NCBI GenBank assembly: GCA_963991145.1
Contig: CAXDOZ010000001.1
Location: forward strand, 6,617 to 70,616
DNA: 64,000 nt
Direction: 5' to 3'
Source: an uncultured Chitinophagales bacterium
GTDB lineage: Bacteria > Bacteroidota > Bacteroidia > Chitinophagales > JABDMM01
Positions 12,398-33,365 of the stretch are shown piece by piece. The stretch's first letter is position 1. Each line of letters opens with the position of its first letter. The notes under the pieces are model-generated. The model had not been told where the DNA came from. It ran no database searches and saw only the letters and a list, made by a program, of their open reading frames with translations. The translations under genes and the position numbers were made by a program.

Positions 12398-13702
12398 ATG
12401 TCAGAAATTGCTTTAGATATAAAAAACCTGTCCAAACAGTATCGACTTGGATTAGTAGGCGTCAGAACTCTGAGTGATGACCTAAAGCGATTCTACTATA
12501 AGATCAGAGGAAAGGAAGATCCTTTCCGATTAGTTGGAGATGAAAATGATAGAACTTCAGTTGGGGGAGATTATGTTTGGGCCTTGCGCGACATAAATCT
12601 CAGTATTTCAAAAGGAGAAGTTGTTGGAATTATTGGAAGGAATGGTGCAGGGAAATCCACTCTTCTGAAGATCTTATCCCAGGTTACAGGACCTACCGAG
12701 GGCTCGATCAAGGTAAAAGGAAGAATATCGTCTCTTTTAGAAGTTGGTACGGGCTTTCATCCTGAACTTACCGGTAAGGAGAATGTCTATCTGAATGGAG
12801 CAATCCTTGGGATGGATAGAAAAGAGATTGCTGCGAAGTTTGATGCAATAGTTGATTTTGCAGGGATCAGGAAGTATATCGATACGCCAACTAAGCGATA
12901 TTCAAGCGGAATGAAAGTTAGACTTGGATTTGCTGTGGCTGCATTTCTCGAGCCAGACATCATGATCGTAGATGAGGTACTCGCTGTAGGTGATGCGGAG
13001 TTTCAAAGAAAAGCAATTGCGAAAATGAGAGAGATCAGCAAGCAAAAGGATCGCACTGTTCTTTTTGTAAGCCACAATATGAACTCGATCAGGAATCTTT
13101 GCAGCAGAGGAGTCCTGTTAGAAATGGGGCAGGTGAAACTTGATGGAGATGTAGATACAATTGTATCTCACTACTTATCTGCAAACTCCACTTCAGAGGA
13201 TAGATCTCAGATTCAACGAACTGGAATAGGTCAGATCAAGATCACAGGAATGAAAATTCTTGATGATCAGGAAAGAGAGATTGATCAATTAATCTCAGGG
13301 GATAAGATTTCTCTTCAATTTGCTTTTGAGAATAATGACCCAACTATCAATTCATCTGAGTTCATCTTTAGTCTGCAGATACGAGATGAGTTTGGTAGTC
13401 CAATCGCCTCCTATATTTCAGATGAGATGAAGATTTCATTCCAGGGCGAAAAGATCCCTCCTACCGGTATAATTGTAGTTGATATACCTAGTTTGATGCT
13501 AAGAGGTGGTAAGTATATCGTAAAAACCAGGATAAATCTCAAAGAAACCGGTTTCAAGCATATGCAGGATGAGATTAATAATCTTGGAGATCTAATTGTT
13601 TTACCTGGAGATCATTGGGATGTAGGCAAGGATAATCGAACTGGGCACCAGGCTCTGTTAGAAGGATCCATCTCAATCAAGGAGAATGCGGACTCTAATT
13701 GA
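12398..13702 (+). CDS. wzt: ABC polysaccharide export ATP-binding protein (Wzt) with a ~180-aa C-terminal extension (Wzt_C-like glycan-cap-binding domain)
   Basis: 434 aa with Walker A 'GRNGAGKST', ABC signature 'YSSGMKVRLGFA' and Walker B 'IMIVDEVLAVGD'. Residues ~255-434 (nt ~13160-13699) extend beyond the NBD, as in the Wzt proteins of ABC-dependent O-antigen systems. Confidence 0.9.
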   Translation: MSEIALDIKNLSKQYRLGLVGVRTLSDDLKRFYYKIRGKEDPFRLVGDENDRTSVGGDYVWALRDINLSISKGEVVGIIGRNGAGKSTLLKILSQVTGPTEGSIKVKGRISSLLEVGTGFHPELTGKENVYLNGAILGMDRKEIAAKFDAIVDFAGIRKYIDTPTKRYSSGMKVRLGFAVAAFLEPDIMIVDEVLAVGDAEFQRKAIAKMREISKQKDRTVLFVSHNMNSIRNLCSRGVLLEMGQVKLDGDVDTIVSHYLSANSTSEDRSQIQRTGIGQIKITGMKILDDQEREIDQLISGDKISLQFAFENNDPTINSSEFIFSLQIRDEFGSPIASYISDEMKISFQGEKIPPTGIIVVDIPSLMLRGGKYIVKTRINLKETGFKHMQDEINNLGDLIVLPGDHWDVGKDNRTGHQALLEGSISIKENADSN

Positions 13703-14498
13703 TAAATATCTGGTAGATCAAAAGAGGTCAATTCTTGAGGGGGTAAGATATACAGCCATTGTCTCCACAGGTCGCACGGGCACAAAGTTCCTGGGGAATT
13801 CATTCTCCCATATACCTTATGTTCTCAGCATTCACGAGCCTAAACCAGTTCTGAATGATGTTGGTAGAGATCTTACTGTGGGTAAATTAAATTCGGTTCA
13901 GGTCCAAAAGAGATTCTTAAATGGCCGACAACAAATTATAAAGGAAGCAAAAGGAAATAAGGTCAATCATATAATTGAATCGAATGGAGGCCTTACCTTT
14001 TTATTGGATGAACTGAATTCAATTATTCCTGACTTTAAGGTCATTCATATAATTAGAGATCCATTTGACATGATCTCATCTGGGGTTTCACGCATGGATA
14101 ATCAAAACGAGCAGCGATACTCAAAGGACTCCAATTGGTTATTCAAGACTCGGGATTATCCCAATGACCCTAATTTTCGCAACTGGAACTCTTTAGATAT
14201 CTATGAGCGCTTTGCATGGATATGGCAGTTTAAAAACCAGCACTTATCTGAATGGTGTGAGTCAAACGAGAATGGTATTTCAGTAAAGTTTGAAGAGATA
14301 TTTCATTCGGGATCTGCATGGTCACAGATTTTAAGTTTTCTAGACCTTGAATATTTCGATTTGTCGAATGAAAAGAAGTTTAAGAACTCAAATGAAGTTC
14401 AATTTGCTGATGATAGATCAACCTGGCCTTCTGCAAGGAAAGAGAAAGTTAGGGCCCTGATAGAGAGTCTCGCCAGGAAATTTGACTACAAGATCTGA
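13686..14498 (+). CDS. PAPS-dependent sulfotransferase (1 of 4; tandem paralogue A)
   Basis: 270 aa with a 5'-PSB-like P-loop 'IVSTGRTGTKFLGNSF', a 3'-PB-like 'VIHIIRDPFDMISS' and 'VKFEEIF'. The ATG overlaps the wzt 3' end by 17 nt. Confidence 0.8.
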   Translation: MRTLIDKYLVDQKRSILEGVRYTAIVSTGRTGTKFLGNSFSHIPYVLSIHEPKPVLNDVGRDLTVGKLNSVQVQKRFLNGRQQIIKEAKGNKVNHIIESNGGLTFLLDELNSIIPDFKVIHIIRDPFDMISSGVSRMDNQNEQRYSKDSNWLFKTRDYPNDPNFRNWNSLDIYERFAWIWQFKNQHLSEWCESNENGISVKFEEIFHSGSAWSQILSFLDLEYFDLSNEKKFKNSNEVQFADDRSTWPSARKEKVRALIESLARKFDYKI

Positions 14499-14499
14499 C

Positions 14500-15348
14500 A
14501 TGAAAGGACTGAAGTCAATTTTTAATTTGTTTAGTAATTCATCATCTGACTCATTTGATGATATTGACTATAAATGTATAGTTAGCTCGGGGAGAACCGG
14601 GACTCAGTTTTTTGGACAATTCTTTGATCATTTCTACGAGAACCTGATTTCTAGGCATGAACCTAGGCCTGACCTGTTCAACATTTTTATCGAGAAATAC
14701 AGGAATAAGGCTGGGACTGAAGAATTGGTGACCTTTCTCAGGAAGGATAGGCTTGCTTTAGTAAATGAGTGTAGGAAATCTCCTTCACAGGTTTTGATAG
14801 AAAGTAATCCTAATGCCAGTTTACTGATTCCGGAGCTTAAACTGACTTTCCCAAGTCATAAATTTTTGTGGATTGTTAGAGATCCAAAAACTTATTTGAA
14901 ATCAGCCTATTCTAAATCTCCTGATGGATCGGGGGAGATGATGTTTTATGGAGAGAATGATCATCGGGATAGGCTGAAACCATCAGATCTGACAGAGTCA
15001 GAAAACGTAGATTGGGATCGCTTTGACCGATTTCAAAAGATATGCTGGTATTGGAATGCGATTAATAAGATTCTATATTCCAACCTTAAGGATGATAACA
15101 ATTGCTTGATGCTTAGGTATGAGGACCTTTTTAGTAAAGAAGATAACTTGCATTACCTTTTGAAGGTTCTCGATTTTTTTGAACTAGATCATTCAGAAAT
15201 AGATCTGGACAGAGTTAATTCAAGAATGTTGGTGCCAAGCAATCAAACTAAATTCAGTATGATAAGATCATACGATGATTGGGATAAAAATAAAACAGAC
15301 TCATTTGAAGCCTTAACTTCTGAAATGAGAAGTATTTTAAACTATTAG
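14500..15348 (+). CDS. PAPS-dependent sulfotransferase (2 of 4; tandem paralogue B)
   Basis: Motifs 'IVSSGRTGTQFFGQFF', 'LWIVRDPKTYLKSAYS' and 'LRYEDLF'. It is colinear with the upstream paralogue ('HEPKP/HEPRP', 'IESNGG/IESNPN'). The ORF track starts at TTG 14482. I prefer ATG 14500, which lies 1 nt after the upstream stop. Confidence 0.8.
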   Translation: MKGLKSIFNLFSNSSSDSFDDIDYKCIVSSGRTGTQFFGQFFDHFYENLISRHEPRPDLFNIFIEKYRNKAGTEELVTFLRKDRLALVNECRKSPSQVLIESNPNASLLIPELKLTFPSHKFLWIVRDPKTYLKSAYSKSPDGSGEMMFYGENDHRDRLKPSDLTESENVDWDRFDRFQKICWYWNAINKILYSNLKDDNNCLMLRYEDLFSKEDNLHYLLKVLDFFELDHSEIDLDRVNSRMLVPSNQTKFSMIRSYDDWDKNKTDSFEALTSEMRSILNY

Positions 15349-15350
15349 AA

Positions 15351-16334
15351 ATGAAAGTTCTTGTTACCGGAGCAGATGGGTTTATTGGAAGCCATTTAGT
15401 TGAAGAATTATTAGATGCTGGATATGAGGTAAAAGCATTCGCATATTATAATTCATTTAATAGCTGGGGTTGGTTAGACACACTTCCGAAAGAGAAGTTG
15501 GACCAAATAGAAATTTTTACTGGAGATATAAGAGACCCAAATGGGGTTAAGACTGCAATGCAAGGAGTTGATCAGGTCTTCCACTTAGCTGCCCTGATTG
15601 CCATTCCATTCAGTTATCACAGTCCTGACAGTTATGTTGATACGAATGTGAAAGGGACACTCAATGTTCTTCAGGCAGGAAGAGATTTAGGACTTGATAG
15701 AATTTTGGTTACTTCTACATCTGAAGTTTATGGAACAGCACAGTTTGTTCCAATTACCGAAGAACACCCAAAACAGGGTCAATCGCCATATTCAGCAACT
15801 AAGATCGGAGCTGATGTATTGGCCGATTCCTTTTTCAGAAGTTTTGACCTGCCAATAACAATTGTTAGGCCCTTTAATACCTACGGTCCCCGACAATCTG
15901 CAAGAGCAGTTATCCCAACAATCATTTCACAACTCCTAAATGAAATGGATGAGATCAAGTTAGGAGACTTGACGCCTACTCGTGACCTTCTTTATGTAAA
16001 AGATACTGCGAGAGGTTTTATTGAGATCTCTAAATCAAATTCTTTGATCGGACAGGAGTGTAATATTGCTACAAACTCTGAGATCAGTATTGGAGATCTT
16101 GCACAGAATCTAATCGATCAAATCCGGCCTCAGGCGAAAATTATTCAAGACGAACAAAGGCTCAGGCCAGGTAAAAGTGAGGTTTTTAGGCTTTTTGGAA
16201 GTAATGCCAGGATCCTGGAGAATACTGATTGGAAGCCTGAATATGATTTGACAAAAGGATTAGCTGAAACAATAGAATGGTTCTCAAATTCAGAGAACTT
16301 GAAAGCCTACAAAGCTCATATCTACAATGTCTAA
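15351..16334 (+). CDS. NAD-dependent sugar-nucleotide 4,6-dehydratase/epimerase (SDR), LegB-like
   Basis: 327 aa with Rossmann motif 'VLVTGADGFIGSHL' and catalytic 'SPYSATKIGAD' (YxxxK). It resembles the dehydratase that pairs with a DegT aminotransferase in legionaminic-acid-type cassettes. Confidence 0.75.
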   Translation: MKVLVTGADGFIGSHLVEELLDAGYEVKAFAYYNSFNSWGWLDTLPKEKLDQIEIFTGDIRDPNGVKTAMQGVDQVFHLAALIAIPFSYHSPDSYVDTNVKGTLNVLQAGRDLGLDRILVTSTSEVYGTAQFVPITEEHPKQGQSPYSATKIGADVLADSFFRSFDLPITIVRPFNTYGPRQSARAVIPTIISQLLNEMDEIKLGDLTPTRDLLYVKDTARGFIEISKSNSLIGQECNIATNSEISIGDLAQNLIDQIRPQAKIIQDEQRLRPGKSEVFRLFGSNARILENTDWKPEYDLTKGLAETIEWFSNSENLKAYKAHIYNV

Positions 16335-17472
16335 TTCAGATGTAATAGAATTCATTAGGGAACTCTACAATGAACCAGATGGATTCATTCCTTTACATAT
16401 TCCACGATTTCGTGGGAGAGAGAAGGAGTATTTAATGAATTGCATTGATTCCACCTTTGTTTCAAGTGTGGGTGAGTATGTAAATCAATTTGAAGAAGAT
16501 ATTGCTTGCATTACAGGCGCCAGGTATGCCATTGCAGTTGTAAATGGCACAAATGCCTTACAGGTAGCCTTACGGCTGGCAGGTGTAAAAACAGAAGAAG
16601 AAGTTATAACACAGGCATTTAGCTTTGTCGCTACAGCCAATGCAATTTCCTATCTGGGAGCAAAACCAGTTTTTATTGATGTCGACAGGCAGCGAATGGG
16701 TATGTCGGCAGAAGCCCTAAGATCTTTTCTACAAGAGAGCACCGAGAGGAAAAATGGTCAGGTTTTTAATAAGAAGACAGGACGCCGAATTGCCGCTATA
16801 GTTCCTATGCACACCTTTGGCTTTGCTGCAGAGATTGACAGTTTAGTTTCTATTGCCAAGGAATGGGGTATTCCTTTAGTTGAAGATGCAGCGGAATCAC
16901 TTGGAACTACTTACAAGGGAAAACATACTGGAACTTTTGGTCTCTTTGGAACGATGAGTTTTAATGGGAATAAGATTGTTACTTGTGGTGGCGGTGGTGT
17001 AATAATTACCGATAGTGAAGAGCTTGCTAAAAAAGCCAAGCATCTTACAACTACTGCAAAGGTTCCTCACAAATGGGCATATGAGCATGATATGATGGGC
17101 TACAATTTTAGAATGCCCAATCTGAATGCAGCTTTGGCATGTGCTCAGCTTGAAATGCTTGATGAATTTTTAGCTAGCAAGAAGAAACAGGCAGATCAAT
17201 ATTCTAACTTTTTCTCTCAAACAGAGGATTACTCCTTTATCGGTGAGCAAGAGAATTCATCATCTAACTTCTGGTTGATGACGATTATTCTTTCTGATAA
17301 AACACACAGAGATAAGTTTCTCAAAGAAACCAATGAAGCAGGAGTAATGACGCGCCCAGCCTGGAATCTTCTCAACACTCTGGATATGTATAGAGACTGC
17401 CAATCTGATGATTTGCTAAATTCAAATTGGTTGTTCGAAAGGGTGGTGAATGTCCCAAGTTCTGTAGTTTAG
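16327..17472 (+). CDS. DegT/DnrJ/EryC1-family PLP aminotransferase (LegC/PglE-like sugar 4-aminotransferase)
   Basis: 381 aa with 'AIAVVNGTNALQVAL', 'VEDAAESLG' and the lysine region 'SFNGNKIVTCGGGGVIITD'. Overlaps the upstream gene by 8 nt. Confidence 0.85.
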   Translation: MSNSDVIEFIRELYNEPDGFIPLHIPRFRGREKEYLMNCIDSTFVSSVGEYVNQFEEDIACITGARYAIAVVNGTNALQVALRLAGVKTEEEVITQAFSFVATANAISYLGAKPVFIDVDRQRMGMSAEALRSFLQESTERKNGQVFNKKTGRRIAAIVPMHTFGFAAEIDSLVSIAKEWGIPLVEDAAESLGTTYKGKHTGTFGLFGTMSFNGNKIVTCGGGGVIITDSEELAKKAKHLTTTAKVPHKWAYEHDMMGYNFRMPNLNAALACAQLEMLDEFLASKKKQADQYSNFFSQTEDYSFIGEQENSSSNFWLMTIILSDKTHRDKFLKETNEAGVMTRPAWNLLNTLDMYRDCQSDDLLNSNWLFERVVNVPSSVV

Positions 17473-17475
17473 AGT

Positions 17476-18126
17476 ATGGCAAAAGATCTCTATATCATTG
17501 GTGCTGGCGGAATGGCAAAAGAAATCCTTCCTTTGGTAAATGATATAAACTACTCTGAGAACCTTTATAGATTAAAGGGATTTATTGATAAGTCTTCAGA
17601 ACTAAAGGAATTAAAAATTGGGGGTTCTAAGTTTCCTGTCTTAGAGGAGGATTTTTTTCTTGAAGAATTCAGGGGGTTTGATGTTGCATGTTGTCTAGGG
17701 ATTGGAGCAAGTCCTTATAACCCATCAATCATTAAGAGATTTGAAGATTTTGAGTTTCCTAATCTGGTCCATCCAAATGTAACTGGTGACCGAAAAAGTA
17801 TAAAGATTGGTAAAGGGAATCTGTTTTGCTCCAATTCTCAGTTTACAGTTAATTTATCAGGTGGCGATTTTAACATCTTTAATCGTGGCAGTCAGGTTGG
17901 CCATGATGTAGAAATTGGAAGTTTTAATCTATTTAATCCTGGCTCTATAGTTTCTGGATCGGTTTCAATTGGTGATTCAAATTTGATTGGGGCTGGATCG
18001 GTTATTCTCCAAAACTTAAAGATTAAGTCTAATTCTATTCTTGGAGCAGGAGCTGTTTTGACCAAAGATCTGGAATCAAATGTAATGGCTATGGGAGTTC
18101 CTGCAAAAGTTGTCAATAATCCTTGA
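17476..18126 (+). CDS. NeuD/PglD-family sugar N-acetyltransferase (left-handed beta-helix)
   Basis: 216 aa. The N-terminal 'LYIIGAGGMAKEILPLV' is followed by hexapeptide repeats ('IGSFNLFNPGSIVSGSVSIGDSNLIGAGSVIL'). Confidence 0.8.
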   Translation: MAKDLYIIGAGGMAKEILPLVNDINYSENLYRLKGFIDKSSELKELKIGGSKFPVLEEDFFLEEFRGFDVACCLGIGASPYNPSIIKRFEDFEFPNLVHPNVTGDRKSIKIGKGNLFCSNSQFTVNLSGGDFNIFNRGSQVGHDVEIGSFNLFNPGSIVSGSVSIGDSNLIGAGSVILQNLKIKSNSILGAGAVLTKDLESNVMAMGVPAKVVNNP

Positions 18127-18136
18127 AAAGATAAAA

Positions 18137-18805
18137 ATGAAAAATGTAGTTGTTGTGGCTGTCCATCCCGATGATGAGACTCTAGCTTGTGGAGGAACCT
18201 TATTGCGCCACAAGAATGAGGGAGATAAAGTCCATTGGATTATTGTAACAAATATTTCTGAAGATCAGGGCTTCTCTAAAGAGAAAGTAAAGTCAAGACA
18301 GGAGGAAATAAATCGAGTGGCAAGAGAATTTAATTTTGATTCAGTAGTGAAGTTTGATTTCCCAACAACTCAACTTGAAGAGTTTTCAAAGGGAAAGTTG
18401 ATTGCCTCTCTTTCAAAAGCCTTTCAGGATATTAAACCCAATGTAGTTTACCTTCCTTTCCCAGGGGACGCTCATAGCGAACACAAGTTTACATTTGAAT
18501 GTGCATTTGCATGTACGAAAACTTTTAGGTACCCATTTGTTGAGGAAGTGTATGCAATGGAAACTATAAGTGAAACGGAGTTTGGGCCCTCTTTTCAGAA
18601 CCAAGTATTTAACCCAAATTATTTTGTAGACGTAACAGAATATTTGCAAAGGAAGGTTGAGATCTTCTCAATTTTTGAATCTGAAATTGGAGAACATCCG
18701 TTCCCTCGTAGTAAAAGGAATCTTAAGGCTCAAGCCACTTTCAGAGGTGCTCAATCAGGTTTCGAATATGCTGAATCATTTATGTTGCTGAAACAAAGGA
18801 GATAA
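18137..18805 (+). CDS. PIG-L/LmbE-family N-acetyl-sugar deacetylase
   Basis: Signature 'VVVVAVHPDDETLACGGTLL' plus a later 'GDAHSEH'. The ORF track starts at TTG 18110. ATG 18137 places the HPDDE motif at the usual N-terminal position. Confidence 0.8.
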   Translation: MKNVVVVAVHPDDETLACGGTLLRHKNEGDKVHWIIVTNISEDQGFSKEKVKSRQEEINRVAREFNFDSVVKFDFPTTQLEEFSKGKLIASLSKAFQDIKPNVVYLPFPGDAHSEHKFTFECAFACTKTFRYPFVEEVYAMETISETEFGPSFQNQVFNPNYFVDVTEYLQRKVEIFSIFESEIGEHPFPRSKRNLKAQATFRGAQSGFEYAESFMLLKQRR

Positions 18806-19692
18806 TGAAAGCTATTTTTATCGGCACTGTAGAATTTAGCTTAAGAGCTCTTGAGGAGCTAATTAAGAGTGATTTAGATTTAGTGGGGGTGATCACAGCT
18901 GAAACAAGTTCCATCAATTCAGATTTTGTGGATTTAGAGCCAATTTGTCAGAAACATTGTATCCCAGTTAGAAAGACAAATAATGTTAATTCTCAGGAAT
19001 CTCTGGATTGGATTTCTTTAAAGAAGCCTGATGTTATTTTTTGTTTTGGATGGTCCAGATTATTAAAGAAACAATTGCTTGATATTCCCTTGCATGGGGT
19101 GATTGGCTTCCATCCTGCTGCCTTACCAAAGAATAGAGGTAGACATCCAATTATCTGGGCTCTTTTCCTTGGATTACAAGAAACTGGCACTACATTTTTT
19201 AGGATGGATGAATTTGCTGACAGTGGGGATATCTTATCCCAAAGTATTATTGAAATTGATCCAGCAGATGATGCAGGTTCTCTTTATGCCAAGATTGTAG
19301 ATACTGCATTGATACAGATAAGGTCATTTGTTCCAGATTTGATTTCAGGAAATGCTTCTTTCCAAAATCAAAGTGACAAGGGGTCCAATAATTGGAGAAA
19401 AAGAGCTATTCCAGATGGAAGAATAGATTTCCGTATGAGTATTACGGCAATCTACAATCAGGTGAGAGCATTGACTAAGCCTTACGTTGGTGCTCATATT
19501 GAATTCAAAGGCAAGGCCTATCAGGTTTGGAAAGTCAGAATCGAACGATCAGTAGAAGATAATATTGAACCTGGGAAAATCTTAAAAGTCAATGAGTCAG
19601 AGATTTTAGTAAAGGCCTATGATGGCGGAGTTTGGCTAATAGACTATGATGTTTCATTTTTACCTAAAGAAGGTGAATATATATTGCCATGA
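18805..19692 (+). CDS. Fmt-like (N10-formyl-THF dependent) sugar N-formyltransferase
   Basis: 295 aa with 'MKAIFIGTVEFS', the catalytic region 'GVIGFHPAALPKNRGRHPIIWAL' and a C-terminal Fmt_C-like beta domain. The start overlaps the upstream stop (TAATG). Confidence 0.75.
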   Translation: MKAIFIGTVEFSLRALEELIKSDLDLVGVITAETSSINSDFVDLEPICQKHCIPVRKTNNVNSQESLDWISLKKPDVIFCFGWSRLLKKQLLDIPLHGVIGFHPAALPKNRGRHPIIWALFLGLQETGTTFFRMDEFADSGDILSQSIIEIDPADDAGSLYAKIVDTALIQIRSFVPDLISGNASFQNQSDKGSNNWRKRAIPDGRIDFRMSITAIYNQVRALTKPYVGAHIEFKGKAYQVWKVRIERSVEDNIEPGKILKVNESEILVKAYDGGVWLIDYDVSFLPKEGEYILP

Positions 19693-27047: not shown

Positions 27048-28160
27048 ATGAAAAAGGCACTTATTACAGGAATTACAGGGCAAGATGGTGCCTATCTTGC
27101 CAAATTTCTCCTTTCAAAGGGATATGAGGTTCACGGAATCAAGCGCCGTAGCTCTCTTTTCAATACTGGAAGGATCGATGATATCTATACAGATCCACAT
27201 ACAGACAACCAAAAGTTCATTCTCCATTTCGGAGATCTTTCCGACAGTGGGAACCTGATTCGATTGGTTCAGGAGATCCAACCCGATGAGATCTACAATC
27301 TGGGAGCGATGTCTCATGTTAAGGTGAGTTTCGATATGCCGGATTATACAGCAAACGTAGATGCAGTTGGAGCACTAAGGATCCTTGAAGCAATTCGTCT
27401 GCTAAACCTTCAGGATAAAACAAGATTCTATCAGGCCTCTACTTCTGAACTTTATGGTAAGGTTCAGGAGATCCCTCAATCTGAAACAACTCCATTCTAT
27501 CCAAGGTCACCTTATGCAGTTGCTAAGATGTATGCCTACTGGATCACTGTGAATTATAGAGAGGCTTATGACCTTTACGCCTGTAACGGAATTCTTTTCA
27601 ATCATGAATCTCCACTGCGGGGCGAGACATTTGTAACGCGTAAGATCACTCGTGCAATCTCAAGAATTGCTTTAGGTCTTCAGAAGACATGCTATCTGGG
27701 AAATCTGGATGCCAAGAGGGACTGGGGACATGCTAAAGATTATGTAGAAGCCATGTGGTTGATGCTGCAGCAAGATGAAGCTGAAGACTTTGTAATTGCT
27801 ACAGGTAAAACAACTACCGTAAGAGACTTTGTTGTAGAAAGCTGCAAGCAAGTTGGATGGGAGATCGAGTTCTCAGGAGAAGGAGAGGCAGAAAAGGGTA
27901 AAGTGGTTTCTTCTAATAACCCGGATTATCCAATTGAACCCGGTACCGTGATCATTGAAGTTGATCCAGCCTACTTTAGACCAACCGAAGTAGATCTGCT
28001 ACTTGGAGATCCAACAAAAGCAAAGCAGAAATTGAATTGGGAACCTAAGTATGACCTGGCAGAGATGGTCAGGGAAATGATGGAATCCGATATCGATCTA
28101 TTCAAAAGAGAGAAACTATTACTTGAAGGAGGACATATCGTTCACGAGGTAAAGGAGTAA
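27048..28160 (+). CDS. gmd: GDP-mannose 4,6-dehydratase
   Basis: 370 aa with '[35 protein letters not shown]', '[12 protein letters not shown]' and '[17 protein letters not shown]'. Confidence 0.97.
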
Positions 28161-28161
28161 A

Positions 28162-29142
28162 ATGGAATCGCTGAAGAATAAGAGAATACTGATTACAGGA
28201 GGAGCAGGATTCTTGGGAAAACATACGGTTGCTGCTTTTAAAAATGCCGGTGTAAAAGAAGAAGATATAATCATTCCAAGATCATCTGATTTTGATCTTC
28301 GATCGCTCGATAAAGCAAACGAACTAATTGAAGCAACTTCTCCGGATCTTGTAGTGAATATCGCTGCCAGACTTGGAGGAATTGGTGATAACAGAAGATA
28401 CCCCGCTTCATATTTCTACGACAACCTAATGATCGGGATCAACATGATCGAAGCCTGTCGTAAGCACCAAATTGGAAAACTCGTCAACATTGGGACTGTA
28501 TGTAGTTATCCCAAGATCCTTGAAGCACCATTCAAAGAAGAGGATCTTTGGAATGGCTATCCCGAAGAGACAAATGCACCTTACGGAGTTTCAAAAAAGT
28601 CGGTAATGGTCTATGGAGAGGCTGTTTATAGACAATATGGATTCAATAATGTAAACCTGCTTCTCACAAACCTTTACGGTCCCGGTGATGATTTCCGTGA
28701 AGCCACTTCTCATGTTATTCCGGCTATCATTAAGAAAATCGCAAATGCTAAGGATAATGGAGATGCTTTTATCGAAGCCTGGGGCGACGGCTCACCATCA
28801 AGGGATTTCCTTTACGTAGAGGATGCAGCACTTGCAATAGTAAAAGCCACCGCTTCACACGATGATCCTATGCCTGTAAATATTGGCGCAGGGAAAGAGA
28901 TCACTGTAAAAGAACTGATCGAGCTACTTGCAAAGTTGATCGGTTTTGATGGTGAAGTGAGATGGGATACTTCAAAGCCTAATGGGCAGCCAAGAAGGCT
29001 TCTTGATGTTTCAAAAGCAAAAGAAGGATTTGATTTTAGTTCTAATACAGATTTTGAAGACGGTTTGAGAAATACCATCGATTGGTACCTTTCAAACAGA
29101 TCGGAGATCGATCAATTACCTCCTAAATTTCAAATGGCATAA
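28162..29142 (+). CDS. fcl: GDP-L-fucose synthase (GDP-4-keto-6-deoxymannose 3,5-epimerase/4-reductase)
   Basis: 326 aa with 'ILITGGAGFLGKH', 'YPASYFYDNLMIGINMIEA', 'GTVCSYPK', 'NAPYGVSKK' and 'TNLYGPGDDF..SHVIPAII'. It starts 1 nt after the gmd stop. Confidence 0.88.
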   Translation: MESLKNKRILITGGAGFLGKHTVAAFKNAGVKEEDIIIPRSSDFDLRSLDKANELIEATSPDLVVNIAARLGGIGDNRRYPASYFYDNLMIGINMIEACRKHQIGKLVNIGTVCSYPKILEAPFKEEDLWNGYPEETNAPYGVSKKSVMVYGEAVYRQYGFNNVNLLLTNLYGPGDDFREATSHVIPAIIKKIANAKDNGDAFIEAWGDGSPSRDFLYVEDAALAIVKATASHDDPMPVNIGAGKEITVKELIELLAKLIGFDGEVRWDTSKPNGQPRRLLDVSKAKEGFDFSSNTDFEDGLRNTIDWYLSNRSEIDQLPPKFQMA

Positions 29143-30125
29143 TGGCTGATCAGAAAAGAGCACTTGTAACAGGAGGCGGAGGTTTTATTGGGTCTCACCT
29201 GGTGAAAAAGCTGAAGAAAGAAGGGTTTTGGGTAAGAGTAGCAGACTTGAAGTATCCTGAGTTTTCTCCTACGGTGGCCGATGACTTTATGCAGGGAGAT
29301 TTGAGAGATCAGGAATTCTGCGCAAGAGTCATAGATCAACCTTTCGACCATCTTTATACCCTTGCAGCTGACATGGGTGGGGCAGGTTATCTGTTCACCG
29401 GTGAGAACGATGCTGATGTGATGCACAACTCGGCGATGATCAATCTAAACGTGGCTCATTTAGCTGTAAAGCATAATGTTGGAAGAGTATTTTACTCCTC
29501 TAGCGCCTGTATTTACCCTGAATTCAATCAGCTTGACCCAGATAATCCAAACTGCGAAGAGAGCACTGCATATCCAGCTCAACCGGATAGTGAATACGGA
29601 TGGGAAAAACTGTTCAGCGAAAGGATGTTCCTGAATTTTGCAAAGAACTATGGGCTTGATGTTAAGATTGCCCGCTTTCACAACATTTTTGGACCTGAAG
29701 GAACCTGGACAGGAGGAAAGGAAAAAGTACCGGCTGCAATGTGCAGAAAAGTGGCAGAAGCAGAAGATGGTTCTTCTATTGAGGTTTGGGGGGATGGTCT
29801 TCAAACGAGATCATTTCTTTACATCGATGAGTGCCTTGAAGGAGTATGGAACCTTATGAATAGCGACAAATCCGGACCATTCAATATTGGTTCAGAAGAG
29901 ATGGTAAGTATCAATGAGCTCGCTGAAATTGTAATTGCTATATCAGGAAAGAACCTTTCATTAGATCACATTCCTGGTCCACAAGGAGTAAGAGGAAGAA
30001 CCTCGGATAATAAGCTCATTCAGGAGCAGATCGGCTGGAAGCCAAACTATCCTCTCAAAAAAGGACTGGAGAAGACTTTCTCATGGATCAATGAGCAGGT
30101 TCATGCTCATAGTACAAAGAGTTAA
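29142..30125 (+). CDS. gme: GDP-mannose 3,5-epimerase (plant GME-type; makes GDP-L-galactose/GDP-L-gulose)
   Basis: 327 aa, colinear with Arabidopsis GME as I recall that sequence: 'LAADMGGAGY', 'SSACIYPEFNQL' (catalytic Cys), 'SEYGWEKL' (Tyr), 'RFHNIFGPEGTWTGGKEKVPAAMCRK' (Lys), 'VWGDGLQTRSFLYIDECLEGV', 'HIPGPQGVRGRTSDN'. Confidence 0.85.
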   Translation: MADQKRALVTGGGGFIGSHLVKKLKKEGFWVRVADLKYPEFSPTVADDFMQGDLRDQEFCARVIDQPFDHLYTLAADMGGAGYLFTGENDADVMHNSAMINLNVAHLAVKHNVGRVFYSSSACIYPEFNQLDPDNPNCEESTAYPAQPDSEYGWEKLFSERMFLNFAKNYGLDVKIARFHNIFGPEGTWTGGKEKVPAAMCRKVAEAEDGSSIEVWGDGLQTRSFLYIDECLEGVWNLMNSDKSGPFNIGSEEMVSINELAEIVIAISGKNLSLDHIPGPQGVRGRTSDNKLIQEQIGWKPNYPLKKGLEKTFSWINEQVHAHSTKS

Positions 30126-30126
30126 G

Positions 30127-31305
30127 ATGACAGATAAGGGAATCCTTGGACATATTTTAAGGAAGTCGACCTATATCTGGCTTCATCTTGATATGGCTTT
30201 CTGTAAGACAGTAGCTAGAGTCTACGCTGCAATTCATGCGAAGAAGCCCAAGAAAGAAATTAAAAAAATTGCTGCTGTCTGGTATTGGCCAGAGAACTTC
30301 AATTCAGACGAATTGAGATTGGCCTATTGGGGAAAGTACTTCGAGAAAGACGGCTATCAATTTGACAATTTTAAAATTCTCGATGTAAAAGAATTTGTCG
30401 AGGAATATGAGAAGGGAACCTGGCCACAGAAGTACCTTTTCTACCGAAGAAACTACCTGAGACGTTGGAGGCAATTTTTTAAAATGAAGGATTACGATGT
30501 CGTTTGGATCGATCGTGCCTTCATGCCTTTTTATCCTTTTAAGTCAGCTGTTTATGAGCCATTGATCAAAAAGATGGGTGCTCATTTGGTTATGGATACC
30601 ACAGATGCATCTGACTATGAGAATAATCCGGATCTGGTTCTCTCAACGCTATCTCAGGCAGATAGAATTACGGCCGCATTTAAAAAGCTTGTAGAGTTTT
30701 ATCAACCCAAGTATCACAATGTTACTCGTCTAAATTGGACAGTACCTATTGAAGGATATGTTGTGAAGGATAATTGGAAACTAAAGGATCCGATCATCAT
30801 TGGTTGGATGGGCAGCCCGGGTAACTTTGAGTATTTAAGAGAAACCCTGGAACAGTTAAAGGAAGTAGCGAAAGAAGTCCCATTTACTTTTAGATATATC
30901 TGCAGGATCAAGCAGGATATTGATATCCCCGGAGCAACAATAGAACATCACTATTACGGAGATGATTATCACGATATCATTGGGACATTCGATATTGGAT
31001 TGGCTCCATTTACCAAGGTGTCTTTTGCCACAGAAGGTAAGATCGGAATGAAGCATCAGGAATTTATGATCTGCAAGATTCCGCAGGTTTGTAGTCCGGT
31101 TGCGATCTCTGAGCATGCTAAACATGAGGAGCATGTCCTTATCGCAAAGGATATAAGTGACTGGAAAGGCCTTATCTTAAGATTGCTTTCCGATGAAGAT
31201 CTAAGGACCAGATTGGGCAATAACAGCCGAGAGCTATTTGATGAGCACTATAATTATGACACCTGGTATCCAACTCTGAAGGAAGTCCTCACCGATTTTG
31301 ATTAA
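30127..31305 (+). CDS. GT-B-fold glycosyltransferase (GT4/GT1-like), paralogue of the 48164-49252 gene
   Basis: 'IIIGWMGSPGNFEYLRETLEQLKEV' and 'FDIGLAPF..GKIGMKHQEFMICKIPQVCSPV' parallel 'ITIGWTGSHSTLKYL' and 'IDIGLYPL..GKSGCKTITYMSIAIPSV' in the other gene. The track start 30091 overlaps gme. ATG 30127 lies 1 nt after the gme stop. Confidence 0.7.
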   Translation: MTDKGILGHILRKSTYIWLHLDMAFCKTVARVYAAIHAKKPKKEIKKIAAVWYWPENFNSDELRLAYWGKYFEKDGYQFDNFKILDVKEFVEEYEKGTWPQKYLFYRRNYLRRWRQFFKMKDYDVVWIDRAFMPFYPFKSAVYEPLIKKMGAHLVMDTTDASDYENNPDLVLSTLSQADRITAAFKKLVEFYQPKYHNVTRLNWTVPIEGYVVKDNWKLKDPIIIGWMGSPGNFEYLRETLEQLKEVAKEVPFTFRYICRIKQDIDIPGATIEHHYYGDDYHDIIGTFDIGLAPFTKVSFATEGKIGMKHQEFMICKIPQVCSPVAISEHAKHEEHVLIAKDISDWKGLILRLLSDEDLRTRLGNNSRELFDEHYNYDTWYPTLKEVLTDFD

Positions 31306-31311
31306 GAAGTA

Positions 31312-32418
31312 ATGGCAGACCGAATCCGAGTGCTTGTATATCCAAACTGGAAACGTGGAAGCGTTTACATGAATAAGCTGGAGGAAGCTGTTGAGGAGAA
31401 TGATATTGGCCTGGACTACACGAGTTTTCACGGAGCGATCTTCCCTCTTTCTAAGCAGTACATGAAGGGCTATCATTCAGTTCTTCAAATTCATTGGGTT
31501 AGTGTGCTCTTTGCCGCAGAAGTCAGGAACCCTGTTAAATTTTGGATAAGATACATTCTGGCATATCTCGACATCTGGTACGTTAGAAATATCCTCTCTG
31601 CCAAAATTGTATGGACAGTTCACAATCTTTATTCCCATGATGCAATCAGGAAAAACCTGGACCTTCGAGCGCGTAGATTTCTTGCTAAGCAATCTGATAT
31701 CCTTTTGTTACATGGACCCAGCGCTATCCCTCTGGTGACAGAAGCCTATAAAGTCGATAAGTCGAAATGCGTTTGTATTCCTCATGGAAATCAAAAAGGG
31801 GCCTTCCCCATGGAGATCTCCAAATTCGACGCAAGAGAAAAGCTCCAGATCGGTCAAAATAAAAAGGTGCTTCTGTTCTTCGGAACTTTAAGAAAGTATA
31901 AAGGGGTTGAGGAATTGATAGAGGCTTTTAAGTCAATTGATGATGAGAACCTCTTCCTGCTGATTGCAGGAAAGTGCCGAGACGAGTCTTACAGAAAAGA
32001 ATTAATGGGAATGGCAGATGATCGCACCTTGATCACTGACTCCTTTGTTCCGATTGATGAGGTTCAGGTATATATGGCTGCCGCGGATATTGTGGTCTTA
32101 CCGTTTAAAGAGATCCTCACTTCAGGATCGCTCTTGCTGGCAATGACCTTTGGAAAAATGATTGTGGCACCGAGGATGGGTACACTCCCGGATTATCTTC
32201 TGCCAGAAGGAGGTATTCTTTATGATGAGAAGAATGAAAACTTGAAAATTGCCTTGAACAGGGCAATGGAAATGGATACTGAGAAAGCGGGTGACTTTAA
32301 TAAAGAGAAAGTTGATCTATTTGACTGGGACAGAATTGGCGACTCAGTTGCCGATTGGTATAGAAAGCTGATCGATTCAAATAACCCTCATCCGAAAAAG
32401 AAGAATTGGTTCCAGTGA
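31312..32418 (+). CDS. GT4-family glycosyltransferase
   Basis: 368 aa with 'KKVLLFFGTLRKYKGVEELIEAF', 'LLIAGKC' and 'ADIVVLPFKEILTSGSLLLAMTFGKMIVAPRMG'. Confidence 0.85.
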   Translation: MADRIRVLVYPNWKRGSVYMNKLEEAVEENDIGLDYTSFHGAIFPLSKQYMKGYHSVLQIHWVSVLFAAEVRNPVKFWIRYILAYLDIWYVRNILSAKIVWTVHNLYSHDAIRKNLDLRARRFLAKQSDILLLHGPSAIPLVTEAYKVDKSKCVCIPHGNQKGAFPMEISKFDAREKLQIGQNKKVLLFFGTLRKYKGVEELIEAFKSIDDENLFLLIAGKCRDESYRKELMGMADDRTLITDSFVPIDEVQVYMAAADIVVLPFKEILTSGSLLLAMTFGKMIVAPRMGTLPDYLLPEGGILYDEKNENLKIALNRAMEMDTEKAGDFNKEKVDLFDWDRIGDSVADWYRKLIDSNNPHPKKKNWFQ

Positions 32419-33365
32419 TTGAAGGATTGAAATATCGGGTCTCTAAAATTCAGGGGAAAATTGAAGCCAAAAAGATCGCTTCAGAGTTCAAAGACCAGAG
32501 TTTGAGAACTCCCCCGGTTTTTATTTTGGGTGCCCCAAGAACTGGCAGTACGATCCTATACCAATTACTAAGTTCACAGGGCGATTTTTTTTATTTCAAT
32601 AATTATCTGGCTAAGAATCATCAAACTCCTGCAAAAGCTTTAAAGACCTTTGCAAGTAAAGGAGGACAATTTAAGCACGACTCTTTTAACTCCAAATTCG
32701 GAGAGACTTCAGGAGACAATGCCCCAAGTGAGGCTGGATACTTTTGGTACAGATGGATCCCAGAAGGACATCATGAATTGAAAAAATCCGATCTAAGTAA
32801 AGATGACCTGGACCAGATCTCGTCCTACTTTAAATTCTTTGAATCCCAATCTCAACTCCCGATCCTCATTAAGAACCTAAACATGGGATTGAGGATGGAT
32901 CTGATAAGGTCAATTCACCCGCAAGCAAGAATCATTCACATTGTAAGGAATACCCTTGACAACTCAAGGTCAATACTGAAGGGAAGAATTAAGTATGGGA
33001 ATTCAGAGGATTTTTGGTTTGGATCAAAACCCAATGAATGGCAGGACTGGCAAAATGGCTCAGTAGCCGAGCAAATCGTGGGACAGATTGAGTGGATGAA
33101 TAATTCTATCCTGAAGGGTGCCAAACAGTTAGGTGATGAGTGTTATTTGCGAATCCGATATGAGGATCTGGTGAAGGACACTGATTCCACGATCAAAGAG
33201 ATCAAGAACTTTTTAAAGAATGGAAACATAGAAATTGAGCATGGATTTCCATCTTTGAGCAAAGAATCCCAAAATGAAGAGCAGCTTGAGCTCTCTGATT
33301 TTGATAAAGAAGTAATTGAATTGGTTAAGAGTAAGGGTACAGAAAGCAATACCCTTTATCTATAG
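32415..33365 (+). CDS. PAPS-dependent sulfotransferase (4 of 4)
   Basis: Motifs 'VFILGAPRTGSTILYQLL' (5'-PSB), 'ARIIHIVRNTLDNSRSIL' (3'-PB) and 'LRIRYEDLVKD'. The track start is TTG 32406. GTG 32415 gives a GTGA overlap with the upstream stop. Confidence 0.8.
   Translation: MIEGLKYRVSKIQGKIEAKKIASEFKDQSLRTPPVFILGAPRTGSTILYQLLSSQGDFFYFNNYLAKNHQTPAKALKTFASKGGQFKHDSFNSKFGETSGDNAPSEAGYFWYRWIPEGHHELKKSDLSKDDLDQISSYFKFFESQSQLPILIKNLNMGLRMDLIRSIHPQARIIHIVRNTLDNSRSILKGRIKYGNSEDFWFGSKPNEWQDWQNGSVAEQIVGQIEWMNNSILKGAKQLGDECYLRIRYEDLVKDTDSTIKEIKNFLKNGNIEIEHGFPSLSKESQNEEQLELSDFDKEVIELVKSKGTESNTLYL

Follow-up and report, generated by a model that had tools for sequence, protein, structure and literature searches.

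The window, a stretch of 64,000 nucleotides, contains a 46 kb surface-glycan cluster of 43 genes (11.5–58 kb) that encodes four PAPS-type sulfotransferases, ST1–ST4. The cluster is predicted, with a probability of roughly 0.7, to direct the synthesis of a sulfated O-antigen-like or capsular polysaccharide, which would be assembled on a lipid carrier, sulfated by the four enzymes in the cytoplasm, and then exported. The host is an uncultured gliding Bacteroidota whose nearest named relatives are Chitinophagales.

Organization of the surface-glycan cluster

11527–12381, + strand: wzm, ABC-2 permease, glycan exporter (Pfam ABC2_membrane, 54.1 bits; at least four hydrophobic segments)
12398–13702, + strand: wzt, ATPase with a C-terminal carbohydrate-binding (cap-reading) domain (ABC_tran, 83.9 bits; Wzt_C, 34.3 bits, cut-off 30.4 bits)
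13686–14498, + strand: ST1, sulfotransferase of the ‘VSTGRTGTKF / HEP / IIRDPxDxxxS’ family, clade A (Sulfotransfer_3, model, paralogy with ST2)
14500–15348, + strand: ST2, sulfotransferase of the same family, clade B (Sulfotransfer_3, Sulfotransfer_1, tree)
15351–20774, + strand: bacillosamine-type (2,4-diamino-2,4,6-trideoxyhexose) nucleotide-sugar module, comprising a LegB-type 4,6-dehydratase (NCBIfam LegB, 496.5 bits, cut-off 475), LegC-family aminotransferase (NCBIfam, 545.5 bits, cut-off 420), NeuD/PglB/VioB-type N-acetyltransferase, PIG-L de-N-acetylase (18110–18805), formyltransferase, and NTP-transferase with an N-terminal extension (Pfam PIG-L, Formyl_trans_N/C, NTP_transferase)
20762–26099, + strand: glycosyltransferases of the low-GC module, comprising a 414-aa protein whose homologue in locus L017 is GT56 (WecF)-like (Glyco_transf_56, 52.5 bits), a GT2, an unknown 324-aa protein, another GT2, and a GT-like 300-aa protein (Pfam)
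26105–26971, + strand: ST3, TPST-like sulfotransferase (Sulfotransfer_3, Sulfotransfer_1, alignment to tick TPST 8w5z)
27048–32418, + strand: GDP-mannose 4,6-dehydratase (Pfam GDP_Man_Dehyd, 506 bits), GDP-fucose-synthase-like reductase (NCBIfam GDP-L-fucose synthase, 275 bits, under cut-off), second epimerase/reductase, and two GT1-type glycosyltransferases (Pfam)
32415–33365, + strand: ST4, CurM-ST/TPST-like sulfotransferase (Sulfotransfer_3, Sulfotransfer_1, alignment to CurM/OLS)
33383–38029, + strand: FemAB-like protein, VimE-like de-N-acetylase (34324–35598, two genes past ST4), carbamoyltransferase (Pfam Carbam_trans_N/C), and small exosortase-family membrane protein (NCBIfam pepcterm_femAB 30.8, VimE 74.5, and XrtX 107 bits, each under cut-off)
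38040–50254, + strand: GT1, UDP-GlcNAc 2-epimerase, aminotransferase, hexapeptide acetyltransferase, and GFO oxidoreductase (diacetamido-uronic-acid-type route), followed by an AsnB amidotransferase, epimerase, GT4, methyltransferase, GT1, and RmlD-like reductase (Pfam; NCBIfam rmlD, 183 bits, under cut-off)
50251–51567, − strand: conserved polytopic 438-aa membrane protein (at least eight hydrophobic segments)
51713–58072, + strand: methyltransferase, GT1, Wza (outer-membrane export, Poly_export), Wzc (826-aa co-polymerase/kinase, Wzz/GNVR/AAA_31; Wza/Wzc pair at 53.7–57 kb), and WecA-type initiating transferase (Glycos_transf_4) (Pfam)

The original prediction placed the four sulfotransferases in a glycan operon, and the setting bears this out: the cluster contains wzm and a wzt with the Wzt_C domain, about ten glycosyltransferases, several sugar-nucleotide pathways, and a WecA-type initiating transferase. 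The 37 genes between 11.5 and 50.2 kb lie on the + strand with no gap longer than 82 nt, which makes their co-expression plausible. The reading frames of wzt and ST1 share 17 nt, and those of ST4 and the GT1 gene upstream of it share 4 nt. A spacer of 1 nt separates ST1 from ST2, and one of 5 nt separates ST3 from its upstream neighbour. The four genes are thus as tightly packed as had been claimed, but the claimed glycosyltransferase neighbours are missing from ST1 and ST2, which are flanked by wzt and the LegB-type dehydratase gene instead.

In the PDB, the window Wzt best matches the full-length Wzt of Aquifex aeolicus (8dku, E 3.6e-65), with an alignment that extends into the carbohydrate-binding domain of 8dku. 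Polytopic proteins are limited to Wzm, WecA, the small exosortase-like protein, and the 438-aa protein. The 438-aa protein, considered as a Wzx flippase, was rejected: it has no Pfam or NCBIfam match, and of its 2492 homologues, those with names come mostly from Chitinophagales, and a few carry PF09913. The window contains no Wzx-type protein. NeuB-type synthase, LegG-type epimerase, and CMP-transferase had no Pfam match among the scanned window ORFs.

Identification of the sulfotransferases

All four ORFs were found on the + strand where they had been predicted, and they contain every peptide quoted for the P-loop (STGRTGTKF, SSGRTGTQF, SPRSGSNYL, and APRTGSTIL) and for the middle of the protein (IIRDPFD, IVRDPKT, IIRNGPD, and IVRNTLD). 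This set of motifs is far beyond chance expectation. The (R/K)(Y/F)E(D/E)L segment, described as common to all four, is not shared by ST1, in which it reads KFEEI. A search with Pfam profiles (cut-offs of 27 bits for Sulfotransfer_3 and 22 bits for Sulfotransfer_1) placed ST2 (36.3 and 31.7 bits, respectively), ST3 (58.3 and 29.6 bits), and ST4 (73.3 and 41.0 bits) above both thresholds, whereas ST1 scored 25.7 bits against Sulfotransfer_3 (E 1.6e-5), 1.3 bits below the cut-off. Nevertheless, ST1 was accepted as a sulfotransferase because of its paralogy with ST2 and the match of its model to PAP-bound structures. ST1 and ST2 share 26% identity (E 2e-24) and are paralogues. The AlphaFold2 model of ST1 has a pLDDT of 93, and all 15 of its top 15 PDB matches are PAPS sulfotransferases, the best being CurM ST, OLS ST, and TPST1/2.

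The residues H50/E51, R124, and S132 are invariant in the ST1/ST2 family (34 members compared), and ST1 retains every family-invariant residue (H50, R124, S132, W180, and W247). The Arg-x7-Ser 3′-phosphate motif is present in all four enzymes, and that of the ST1/ST2 family profile aligns to MVRDGRASVHS of TPST1. In ST3 and ST4, the P-loop aligns to the PAPS-binding P-loops of TPST and the CurM/OLS sulfotransferases: the alignment with tick TPST 8w5z covers the P-loop and 3′-phosphate motif of ST3, and CurM and OLS sulfotransferases align to the P-loop and RYEDL segment of ST4. No catalytic base of ST3 or ST4 could be assigned from these alignments. The profiles, the PAPS-motif alignments, and the ST1 model together uphold the predicted PAPS-type identity of all four proteins. 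They represent three lineages, ST1 with ST2, ST3, and ST4, and a profile and jackhmmer scan of all window ORFs recovered exactly these four, with no fifth sulfotransferase.

Probable sulfation before export and alternative explanations

None of the four sulfotransferases contains a hydrophobic segment, and they are accordingly predicted to be cytoplasmic. The Wzm/Wzt ABC transporter is the sole inner-membrane glycan exporter in the window. Together, these features make it most likely that sulfation takes place in the cytoplasm, on the lipid-linked glycan, ahead of export. Undecaprenyl phosphate would carry one or more glycans during their assembly on the cytoplasmic side of the membrane, where ST1–ST4 would transfer sulfate from PAPS to these glycans, and export of the sulfated chains would yield the O-antigen-like or capsular polysaccharide. 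The product may also include N-acetyl/N-formyl bacillosamine-type sugars, 6-deoxyhexose, a diacetamido-uronic acid that is perhaps amidated, and methyl and carbamoyl substituents. The original suggestion that sulfate takes the place of phosphate as the source of negative charge is speculative.

The expectation that a single product is sulfated at up to four positions was not supported, given the break in GC content near 26 kb, the gene on the opposite strand at 50.2–51.6 kb that interrupts the + strand run, and the presence of both Wzm/Wzt and Wza/Wzc. It is a substantial possibility, although not the favoured one, that ST1–ST4 are divided among two or more products, so that no single glycan would have four kinds of sulfate. 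The low-GC module, which extends from wzm to 26.1 kb and includes ST1 and ST2, would then make one ABC-exported polymer, and the higher-GC part, with ST3, ST4, the exosortase-linked genes, and Wza/Wzc, would make or decorate another. Genes in the 11.5–26.1 kb region have a GC content of 0.36–0.40, compared to 0.41–0.45 for most genes at 26.1–50 kb, and the wzm-wzt-ST-LegB-NTP-GT56-like module stands alone in other Bacteroidota (L024, L069, L071, and L099). The module's dehydratase, aminotransferase, and NTP-transferase match far more strongly (E 1e-126 to 1e-174) than does its sulfotransferase or GT56-like protein, and a Wza/Wzc pair is typical for Wzy-type systems. However, there is only a single initiating transferase, the window lacks both a further inner-membrane exporter, whether Wzx or a second ABC pair, and a recognizable Wzy, and the intergenic gaps stay within 82 nt even across the GC boundary. 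Within the low-GC module, the sulfotransferases are the sole polymer-modifying enzymes, the other modifying enzymes acting on nucleotide sugars, which fits a more specific role that is nonetheless doubtful: ST1 and/or ST2 could be capping enzymes rather than repeat-unit decorators, sulfating the terminal non-reducing residue, stopping elongation, and creating the epitope to which Wzt_C has to bind before export can proceed. In E. coli O8/O9a the gene order is wzm-wzt-wbdD, with the terminator WbdD encoded right behind wzt, the position of ST1 in the window. The sulfate would perhaps be on O-3 of a terminal bacillosamine-type sugar placed by the GT56-like transferase; O-3 is the only free hydroxyl position of a bacillosamine residue, and O-sulfation would therefore be possible solely at the terminal residue. 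ST1 and ST2 belong to the two clades of a 70-member tree, one in each, to which wzt-adjacent sulfotransferases are confined, and which recur directly past a Wzt_C-bearing wzt and beside bacillosamine-type sugar genes. A gene of this family follows wzt directly in eight more loci (L008, L017, L024, L026, L041, L069, L071, and L099), and the Wzt_C cut-off is exceeded by three of four tested Wzt proteins but not by that of Salegentibacter, which scores 23 bits. In characterized systems Wzt_C, also carried by the window Wzt, pairs with a terminal cap needed for export (PMC9445017, PMC11231755). In Aeromonas salmonicida a sulfotransferase-domain gene lies directly past wzt, as ST1 does here, yet no sulfate was found in the O-antigen repeat (PMC4483657). 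This case speaks against the predicted sulfated product in general, but cap-only sulfate would explain it. On the other hand, the compact globular model of ST1 lacks the coiled-coil ruler of known terminators (PMC11231755), one enzyme would suffice for capping where the window has two in tandem, and wzt adjacency is limited to a minority of the family (nine loci by automatic count, eight without L078, of about 84 assessable genes). Relatives also occur in the Wzx-type locus L007, and a methyltransferase directly past the sulfotransferase in L008, L017, and L041 could provide a conventional methyl cap. The Wzt C-terminal domains of the sulfotransferase-linked loci are only 23–36% identical to that of the window, a level that weighs neither way. 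A sulfate cap, which would be an analogue of methyl, methyl-phosphate, and Kdo caps, was not found in the accessible literature.

At least one of the enzymes could be an N-sulfotransferase acting on an amino sugar freed by either of the two de-N-acetylases of the cluster, PIG-L and VimE-like, which would follow the logic of heparan-sulfate NDST but divided among separate proteins. A VimE-like gene adjoins ST1/ST2-family genes in L037/L088 and L086, PIG-L adjoins sulfotransferase genes in L007, and the sulfated exopolymers of Pontiella are reported to be mostly N-sulfated (PMC7356697). N-sulfation is nonetheless unlikely: the neighbouring formyltransferase, acetyltransferases, or FemAB-like protein could re-acylate the freed amines equally well, and none of the sequence features tested separates N- from O-sulfotransferases. 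That some of the four act on a lipid, protein tyrosine, or small molecule, or are inactive relics, is very improbable. Among solved structures, the nearest are those of tyrosylprotein and polyketide sulfotransferases rather than carbohydrate ones, and P0002, the homologue most similar to ST1 (40% identity), comes from an orphan gene beside cysS and a peptidase, outside any glycan cluster. However, the PAPS-binding motifs are intact in all four enzymes, their genes are tightly packed amid glycan genes, and the great majority of relatives lie amid glycosyltransferase and sugar-nucleotide genes.

Related clusters and PAPS supply

Clusters with sulfotransferases have been published for sulfated bacterial polysaccharides (PMC8205485, PMC11641403, PMC7356697), including those of Synechocystis (PMC8205485) and Vibrio sp. 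KMM 8419, whose cluster is ABC-transporter-dependent (PMC11641403). The Vibrio study considers cysNDC together with sulfotransferases within the cluster a hallmark of sulfated-polysaccharide synthesis (PMC11641403). In contrast, the window and 10 kb past either end contain no cysDN, cysC, or cysQ, the PAPS-synthesis and PAP-recycling genes that the original prediction had proposed to look for. Its description of heavily sulfated surface polysaccharides as uncommon was overstated: two to four sulfotransferase ORFs occur in 18 of the 42 independent loci bearing an ST1/ST2-family gene. The four-sulfotransferase glycan cluster is little studied rather than unique. Multi-sulfotransferase clusters recur in other metagenomic genomes, and the same gene set, with the same sulfotransferase proteins, is present on several contigs that were assembled independently from other samples.

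Four PAPS-type sulfotransferases of three lineages

The glycan cluster encodes four candidate PAPS-dependent sulfotransferases, ST1 to ST4, listed with their Pfam scores:

13686-14498, + strand: ST1; Sulfotransfer_3 25.7 bits, no Sulfotransfer_1 match
14500-15348, + strand: ST2; Sulfotransfer_3 36.3 bits, Sulfotransfer_1 31.7 bits
26105-26971, + strand: ST3; Sulfotransfer_3 58.3 bits, Sulfotransfer_1 29.6 bits
32415-33365, + strand: ST4; Sulfotransfer_3 73.3 bits, Sulfotransfer_1 41.0 bits

With Pfam cut-offs of 27 bits for Sulfotransfer_3 (PF13469) and 22 bits for Sulfotransfer_1 (PF00685), ST2, ST3, and ST4 exceed both thresholds, and ST1 is borderline, 1.3 bits under that of PF13469. An HMM and jackhmmer sweep of every open reading frame of the window recovered exactly these four proteins and no fifth sulfotransferase. 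The four reading frames lie where the original prediction had placed them, and every peptide that it quoted is present in their translations. The "(R/K)(Y/F)E(D/E)L" segment, said to be common to all four, reads RYEDL in ST2, ST3, and ST4, but is KFEEI in ST1. Close packing among glycosyltransferases had also been proposed, but the neighbors of ST1 and ST2 are wzt and a sugar dehydratase instead.

The P-loop of ST4 (GAPRTGSTIL) aligns with the SSPRSGSTLL stretch of the CurM and OLS sulfotransferases, as does its RYEDL region. That of ST3 (VSPRSGSNYL) aligns with GMPRSGTTLV of tyrosylprotein sulfotransferase (TPST), and the IIRNGPDAVES stretch of ST3 aligns with the 3'-phosphate stretch of tick TPST. 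Each of the four carries a 3'-phosphate motif spaced R-x7-S (RDPFDMISS in ST1, RDPKTYLKS in ST2, RNGPDAVES in ST3, and RNTLDNSRS in ST4). In an alignment of 34 members of the family to which ST1 and ST2 belong, VSTGRTGTKF is at least 90% conserved, ESN is nearly invariant, and R124 and S132, the ends of the R-x7-S motif, are invariant; in the family profile, it lines up with MVRDGRASVHS of human TPST1. H50, which is invariant, and E51, which is at least 90% conserved, are candidates for the catalytic base. Pairwise alignments of ST3 and ST4 with the CurM and OLS sulfotransferases and TPST gave no confident equivalent of the catalytic histidine or glutamate.

The AlphaFold2 model of ST1, built on the alignment of 34 relatives, has a pLDDT of 93 and a pTM of 0.90. 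Its top 15 Foldseek matches in the PDB are all PAPS sulfotransferases, namely the CurM and OLS sulfotransferases and TPST1/2, most of them PAP-bound, with E-values of 1e-6 to 1e-4 and TM-scores of 0.5-0.6. The assignment to PAPS-type sulfotransferases is supported by the P-loop and R-x7-S motifs for ST1-4, by Pfam for ST2-4, and by the predicted fold for ST1. ST1 and ST2 are paralogues, 26% identical across 260 residues (E 2e-24). ST3 is distant from ST4, and both are distant from ST1 and ST2; therefore, three sulfotransferase lineages are present. None of the four proteins contains a hydrophobic segment.

Gene content of the glycan cluster

The sulfotransferase genes belong to a cluster of 43 genes (11527-58072), 42 of which are on the + strand. 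Throughout the 37 + strand genes at 11.5-50.2 kb, the gaps are at most 82 nt. Scanned for promoters and terminators with models that do not cover Bacteroidota promoters, the stretch at 11-31 kb gave fewer matches than shuffled sequence and none between genes, a result that is uninformative here. Besides ST1-4, the cluster and its upstream border contain:

5842-11499, - strand: 1885-aa protein carrying five PKD domains and, at its C terminus, a sorting domain for type IX secretion (upstream of the cluster)
11527-13702, + strand: wzm (ABC2_membrane 54.1 bits), then wzt (ABC_tran 83.9 bits; Wzt_C 34.3 bits, cut-off 30.4); ST1 and ST2 lie directly 3' of wzt
15351-20774, + strand: LegB-type dehydratase, LegC-family aminotransferase, NeuD/PglB/VioB-type acetyltransferase, PIG-L de-N-acetylase, formyltransferase, and NTP-transferase
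20762-22006, + strand: 414-aa protein with a GT56 (WecF)-like homologue in the related locus L017; then GT2, an unknown protein, GT2, and a GT-like protein
between ST3 and ST4, + strand: Gmd, two reductase/epimerases, and two GT1
33383-38029, + strand: FemAB-like protein, VimE-like de-N-acetylase, carbamoyltransferase, and small exosortase-family protein; then GT1
3' of these, + strand: route of the diacetamido-uronic-acid type, AsnB amidotransferase, two methyltransferases, further glycosyltransferases, and RmlD-like reductase
50251-51567, - strand: polytopic membrane protein of 438 aa, the sole opposite-strand gene of the cluster
far end of the cluster, + strand: Wza, Wzc, and WecA-type initiator

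The LegB and LegC proteins score 496 bits (cut-off 475) and 545 bits (cut-off 420) against their NCBIfam families. Since legionaminic-acid synthase, hydrolysing epimerase, and CMP-transferase are all absent from the window, legionaminic acid was rejected as the product, and the route of the LegB/LegC genes most likely ends with a sugar of the bacillosamine type, substituted with N-acetyl or N-formyl. This sugar is possibly GDP-linked and seems to be handed to the GT56 (WecF)-like transferase. The NTP-transferase of the same module has an N-terminal extension.

The 2-epimerase, aminotransferase, hexapeptide acetyltransferase, and GFO oxidoreductase at 39346-45080 form a typical set for UDP-2,3-diacetamido-2,3-dideoxy-uronic acid. 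The AsnB-type amidotransferase encoded 3' of this set could convert the carboxylate to an amide, in which case the negative charge of the glycan would come mainly from sulfate and not from uronate. The FemAB-like protein is of the PEP-CTERM-associated type, here embedded in a glycan cluster, and the nearby exosortase-family membrane protein (181 aa) has its best match to XrtX (107 bits), below the cut-off.

Probable sulfation before export

Only four proteins of the cluster are polytopic: Wzm, WecA, the small exosortase-like protein, and the 438-aa protein. A polyprenyl-phosphate initiating transferase of the WecA type is present, and no Polysacc_synt-type Wzx flippase is encoded in the window. 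The 438-aa protein matches no Pfam or NCBIfam family; its homologues number 2492, of which those with a name are mostly from Chitinophagales with about 40-47% identity, and a few carry PF09913 (DUF2142). Given this wide conservation and the lack of a family match, it was rejected as a Wzx and is doubtful as a Wzy. Wzm/Wzt is therefore the sole glycan exporter of the inner membrane that the window encodes.

PAPS is located in the cytoplasm. In ABC-transporter-dependent pathways, the entire chain is completed at the cytoplasmic face of the membrane on undecaprenyl diphosphate (PMC9445017, PMC11231755). Because chain completion and PAPS share this compartment, cytoplasmic sulfation is the best-supported model. 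The glycan would be built in lipid-linked form at the cytoplasmic face, sulfated there from PAPS by ST1-4, and only then exported by Wzm/Wzt; we infer the steps beyond the presence of sulfotransferases in a glycan cluster.

The genes for PAPS supply were sought among the Pfam matches of window reading frames of at least 150 aa (APS-kinase, ATP-sulfurylase, and CysQ-type) and among the genes called in the 10-kb flanks. The check for cysDN, cysC, and cysQ, suggested in the original prediction, found none within the window or 10 kb past either end. A Vibrio study describes cysD, cysN, and cysC together with sulfotransferases in one cluster as the hallmark of sulfated-polysaccharide clusters (PMC11641403); none of the three lies beside the sulfotransferases of the present cluster.

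A single glycan sulfated at up to four positions had been predicted, which is not derivable from the sequence in view of a step in GC content, the self-contained first block, the Wza/Wzc pair, and the lack of PAPS genes nearby. The genes at 11.5-26.1 kb have a GC content of 0.36-0.40, whereas most genes at 26.1-50 kb have 0.41-0.45; the step lies at about 26000, between the gene at 25197-26099 and ST3, where GC rises from about 0.37-0.39 to about 0.42-0.44. This step suggests that the block from wzm to the glycosyltransferases, which holds ST1 and ST2, was acquired separately or is specific to a serotype. The 11.5-26.1 kb block recurs in other Bacteroidota as a self-contained module.

Distribution of the ST1/ST2 family

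A word-index search with ST1 recovered no more than 36 relatives, of which the nearest has 40% identity, and a full profile search of 1.84 billion representatives gave 768 clusters at E <=1e-30, indicating a family of modest size. Its 40 loci in species-representative genomes are spread over many bacterial and archaeal phyla, and nearly all of these genomes are metagenome-assembled. Neighbors in related loci were labeled by phmmer against the proteins of the window, so that an unlabeled neighbor carries no identity. At least two sulfotransferase reading frames lie within 10 kb in 18 of the 42 independent loci; L017 and L044 have four, and L007, L010, and L014 have three. The view that heavily sulfated surface glycans are uncommon in bacteria is at odds with these multi-sulfotransferase loci and with the published synechan, Vibrio, and Pontiella cases.

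Two cultured carriers were found, which could serve as experimental models. In Salegentibacter salinarum DSM 23400 (L041), wzm, wzt, a sulfotransferase gene, and an FkbM methyltransferase gene are followed by GT1/GT2 genes (7683-20057), and a second sulfotransferase gene lies on the other strand (3186-3977). In Marinobacterium profundum PAMC 27536 (L038), two sulfotransferase genes lie beside gmd (5397-12800).

In two loci from one metagenome sample (JGI 3300022700), L006 (7001-11099 and the locus end) and L007 (1292-7864), glycosyltransferase genes are interspersed with three to five sulfotransferase genes per locus. L006 includes a gene with a Sulfotransfer_2 domain and one of the GT9 heptosyltransferase family; L007 includes genes for PIG-L, a formyltransferase, an NTP-transferase, and a flippase of the Wzx type. 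P0002, the homologue closest to ST1 (40% identity; L005, 6827-7705), is encoded by an orphan gene that is flanked by cysS and the gene for a type IX secretion-tailed protein and lies outside any glycan cluster.

Possible roles of ST1 and ST2

In characterized ABC-dependent systems, the C-terminal domain of Wzt reads a cap carried by the glycan's non-reducing terminus, and the cap stops growth and licenses export; the caps known so far are methyl, methyl-phosphate, and Kdo, and the known terminators have a coiled-coil ruler (PMC9445017, PMC11231755). Like capped systems, the window encodes a Wzm permease and a Wzt with a C-terminal carbohydrate-binding domain, which spans about residues 265-434, and the alignment of this Wzt with that of Aquifex aeolicus (8dku) reaches into the 8dku binding domain. 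ST1 and ST2 may represent two clades of a previously uncharacterized sulfotransferase family that caps ABC-transporter-dependent glycans with sulfate, a reading that we consider unlikely as it stands, at roughly one chance in five. On this reading, sulfate would be added to the one hydroxyl still free on a bacillosamine-type residue at the chain terminus, thereby ending polymerization and creating the epitope that the carbohydrate-binding domain of Wzt must recognize before export. If so, sulfate would be a fourth cap chemistry, spread through Bacteroidota. Within a bacillosamine residue, O-3 alone is free, so O-sulfation of the residue would be possible solely at the chain end and would block extension.

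A family sulfotransferase gene directly follows wzt in eight further loci (L008, L017, L024, L026, L041, L069, L071, and L099), which usually also carry LegB, NTP-transferase, and GT56-like genes. L078 was excluded because the protein taken for Wzt there is a 237-aa ABC ATPase of the ordinary kind. The Wzt_C cut-off is passed by three of the four Wzt proteins scanned (47.7, 43.9, and 57.1 bits), the Wzt of Salegentibacter scoring 23 bits, and in a neighbor-joining tree of 70 members the wzt-adjacent genes fall into two clades, one with ST1 and the other with ST2. A cap-only sulfate is also compatible with Aeromonas salmonicida, which has a pair of wzt and a sulfotransferase-domain gene and no sulfate in the repeat unit (PMC4483657). 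However, the ST1 model is predicted to be compact and globular, with the longest helices of about 20 residues and no coiled-coil ruler; the majority of the family has no adjoining wzt, and some members lie in a Wzx-type locus. Furthermore, a methyltransferase gene beside the sulfotransferase gene in L008, L017, and L041 is a possible source of a conventional cap, and the window carries two sulfotransferases next to wzt although one would suffice. The C-terminal domains of Wzt proteins from sulfotransferase-linked loci have 23-36% identity to that of the window, a range uninformative about a shared cap. In full-text searches, no accessible paper named sulfate as a cap; a 2019 terminator census (Mann, Kimber, and Whitfield; Glycobiology 29:822) may list sulfotransferases. 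The recurrent wzt-sulfotransferase arrangement offers a hypothesis that is testable in culture, namely that sulfate may signal chain termination and export.

Alternatively, one or more of the enzymes could N-sulfate amino groups exposed by the PIG-L or VimE-like de-N-acetylases. In L037, L088, and L086, a gene for a VimE-like de-N-acetylase lies directly downstream of a gene of the ST1/ST2 family; L037 and L088 look like one contig. The recurrence of the pair hints that N-sulfation may follow deacetylation. As in the heparan-sulfate N-deacetylase/N-sulfotransferase NDST, de-N-acetylases and sulfotransferases are encoded in the window together with amino-sugar pathways; unlike in NDST, they are separate proteins, and the deacetylases are of unrelated families (PIG-L and VimE-like).

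Comparison with known systems

Sulfated polysaccharides are valued for their physical and biological properties, and to our knowledge very few bacterial polysaccharide-sulfating enzymes have been studied. The cluster and its related loci provide a set of candidate polysaccharide sulfotransferases, with differing specificities.

The xss cluster for synechan of Synechocystis sp. PCC 6803 likewise has PF00685/PF13469 sulfotransferases of distinct subfamilies among glycosyltransferases, and synechan was shown to carry two sulfates per eight sugars (PMC8205485). However, xss has two sulfotransferases, Wzx/Wzy with a co-polymerase, a location on a cyanobacterial megaplasmid, and a dedicated regulator set (PMC8205485), whereas the cluster described here has four sulfotransferases and Wzm/Wzt without Wzx, and belongs to Bacteroidota. 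The capsule of Vibrio sp. KMM 8419 is ABC-dependent, with three sulfotransferases across a very large glycan region, and its product is sulfated according to NMR (PMC11641403). In contrast to the window, its region includes cysNDC, and the sugars, phylum, and sulfotransferase lineages differ.

The combination of Wzm, a Wzt with a binding domain, and a small-group transferase directly 3' of wzt is shared with E. coli O9a/O8 WbdD-Wzt, K. pneumoniae O12/O4/O7, and Aquifex aeolicus WzmWzt, but in the window the enzymes encoded next to wzt are sulfotransferases that lack a coiled coil, and a capping role is suggested by gene order. In the ABC-dependent O-antigen cluster of Aeromonas salmonicida A450, the gene for a 438-aa Wzt immediately precedes that for a small sulfotransferase-domain protein, ORF19, and sulfate was not seen in the O-antigen repeat unit (PMC4483657). 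That cluster differs in having a single 216-aa protein of this type, followed by a WbbB-type multidomain enzyme, and its likeness to ST1 and ST2 is in domain and position.

Pontiella sulfatireligans F21 makes a sulfated exopolymer and has a putative sulfated-glycosaminoglycan cluster with a PF13469 sulfotransferase among GT2/GT4, aminotransferase, methyltransferase, and gmd genes (PMC7356697). This verrucomicrobial cluster has one sulfotransferase, and a link to Wzm/Wzt is not described in the passages on it (PMC7356697). The synechan paper considers sulfated polysaccharides to be exclusive to cyanobacteria among bacteria (PMC8205485), a statement that is contradicted by the Vibrio (PMC11641403) and Pontiella (PMC7356697) reports. 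The sulfotransferase-rich loci identified here point the same way; with the present cluster, they show that non-cyanobacterial lineages, including Bacteroidota, carry multi-sulfotransferase glycan clusters.

Genomic setting

The gene for the 1885-aa PKD-domain protein lies directly upstream of wzm in the divergent orientation; other genes occupy this place in the related contig L004. Genes for SprB and PorP are located just past the left end of the window. The type IX secretion-tailed protein, SprB/PorP, and the Chitinophagales homologues of the 438-aa protein place the window in Bacteroidota. The sequence of the window was assembled independently from several samples.
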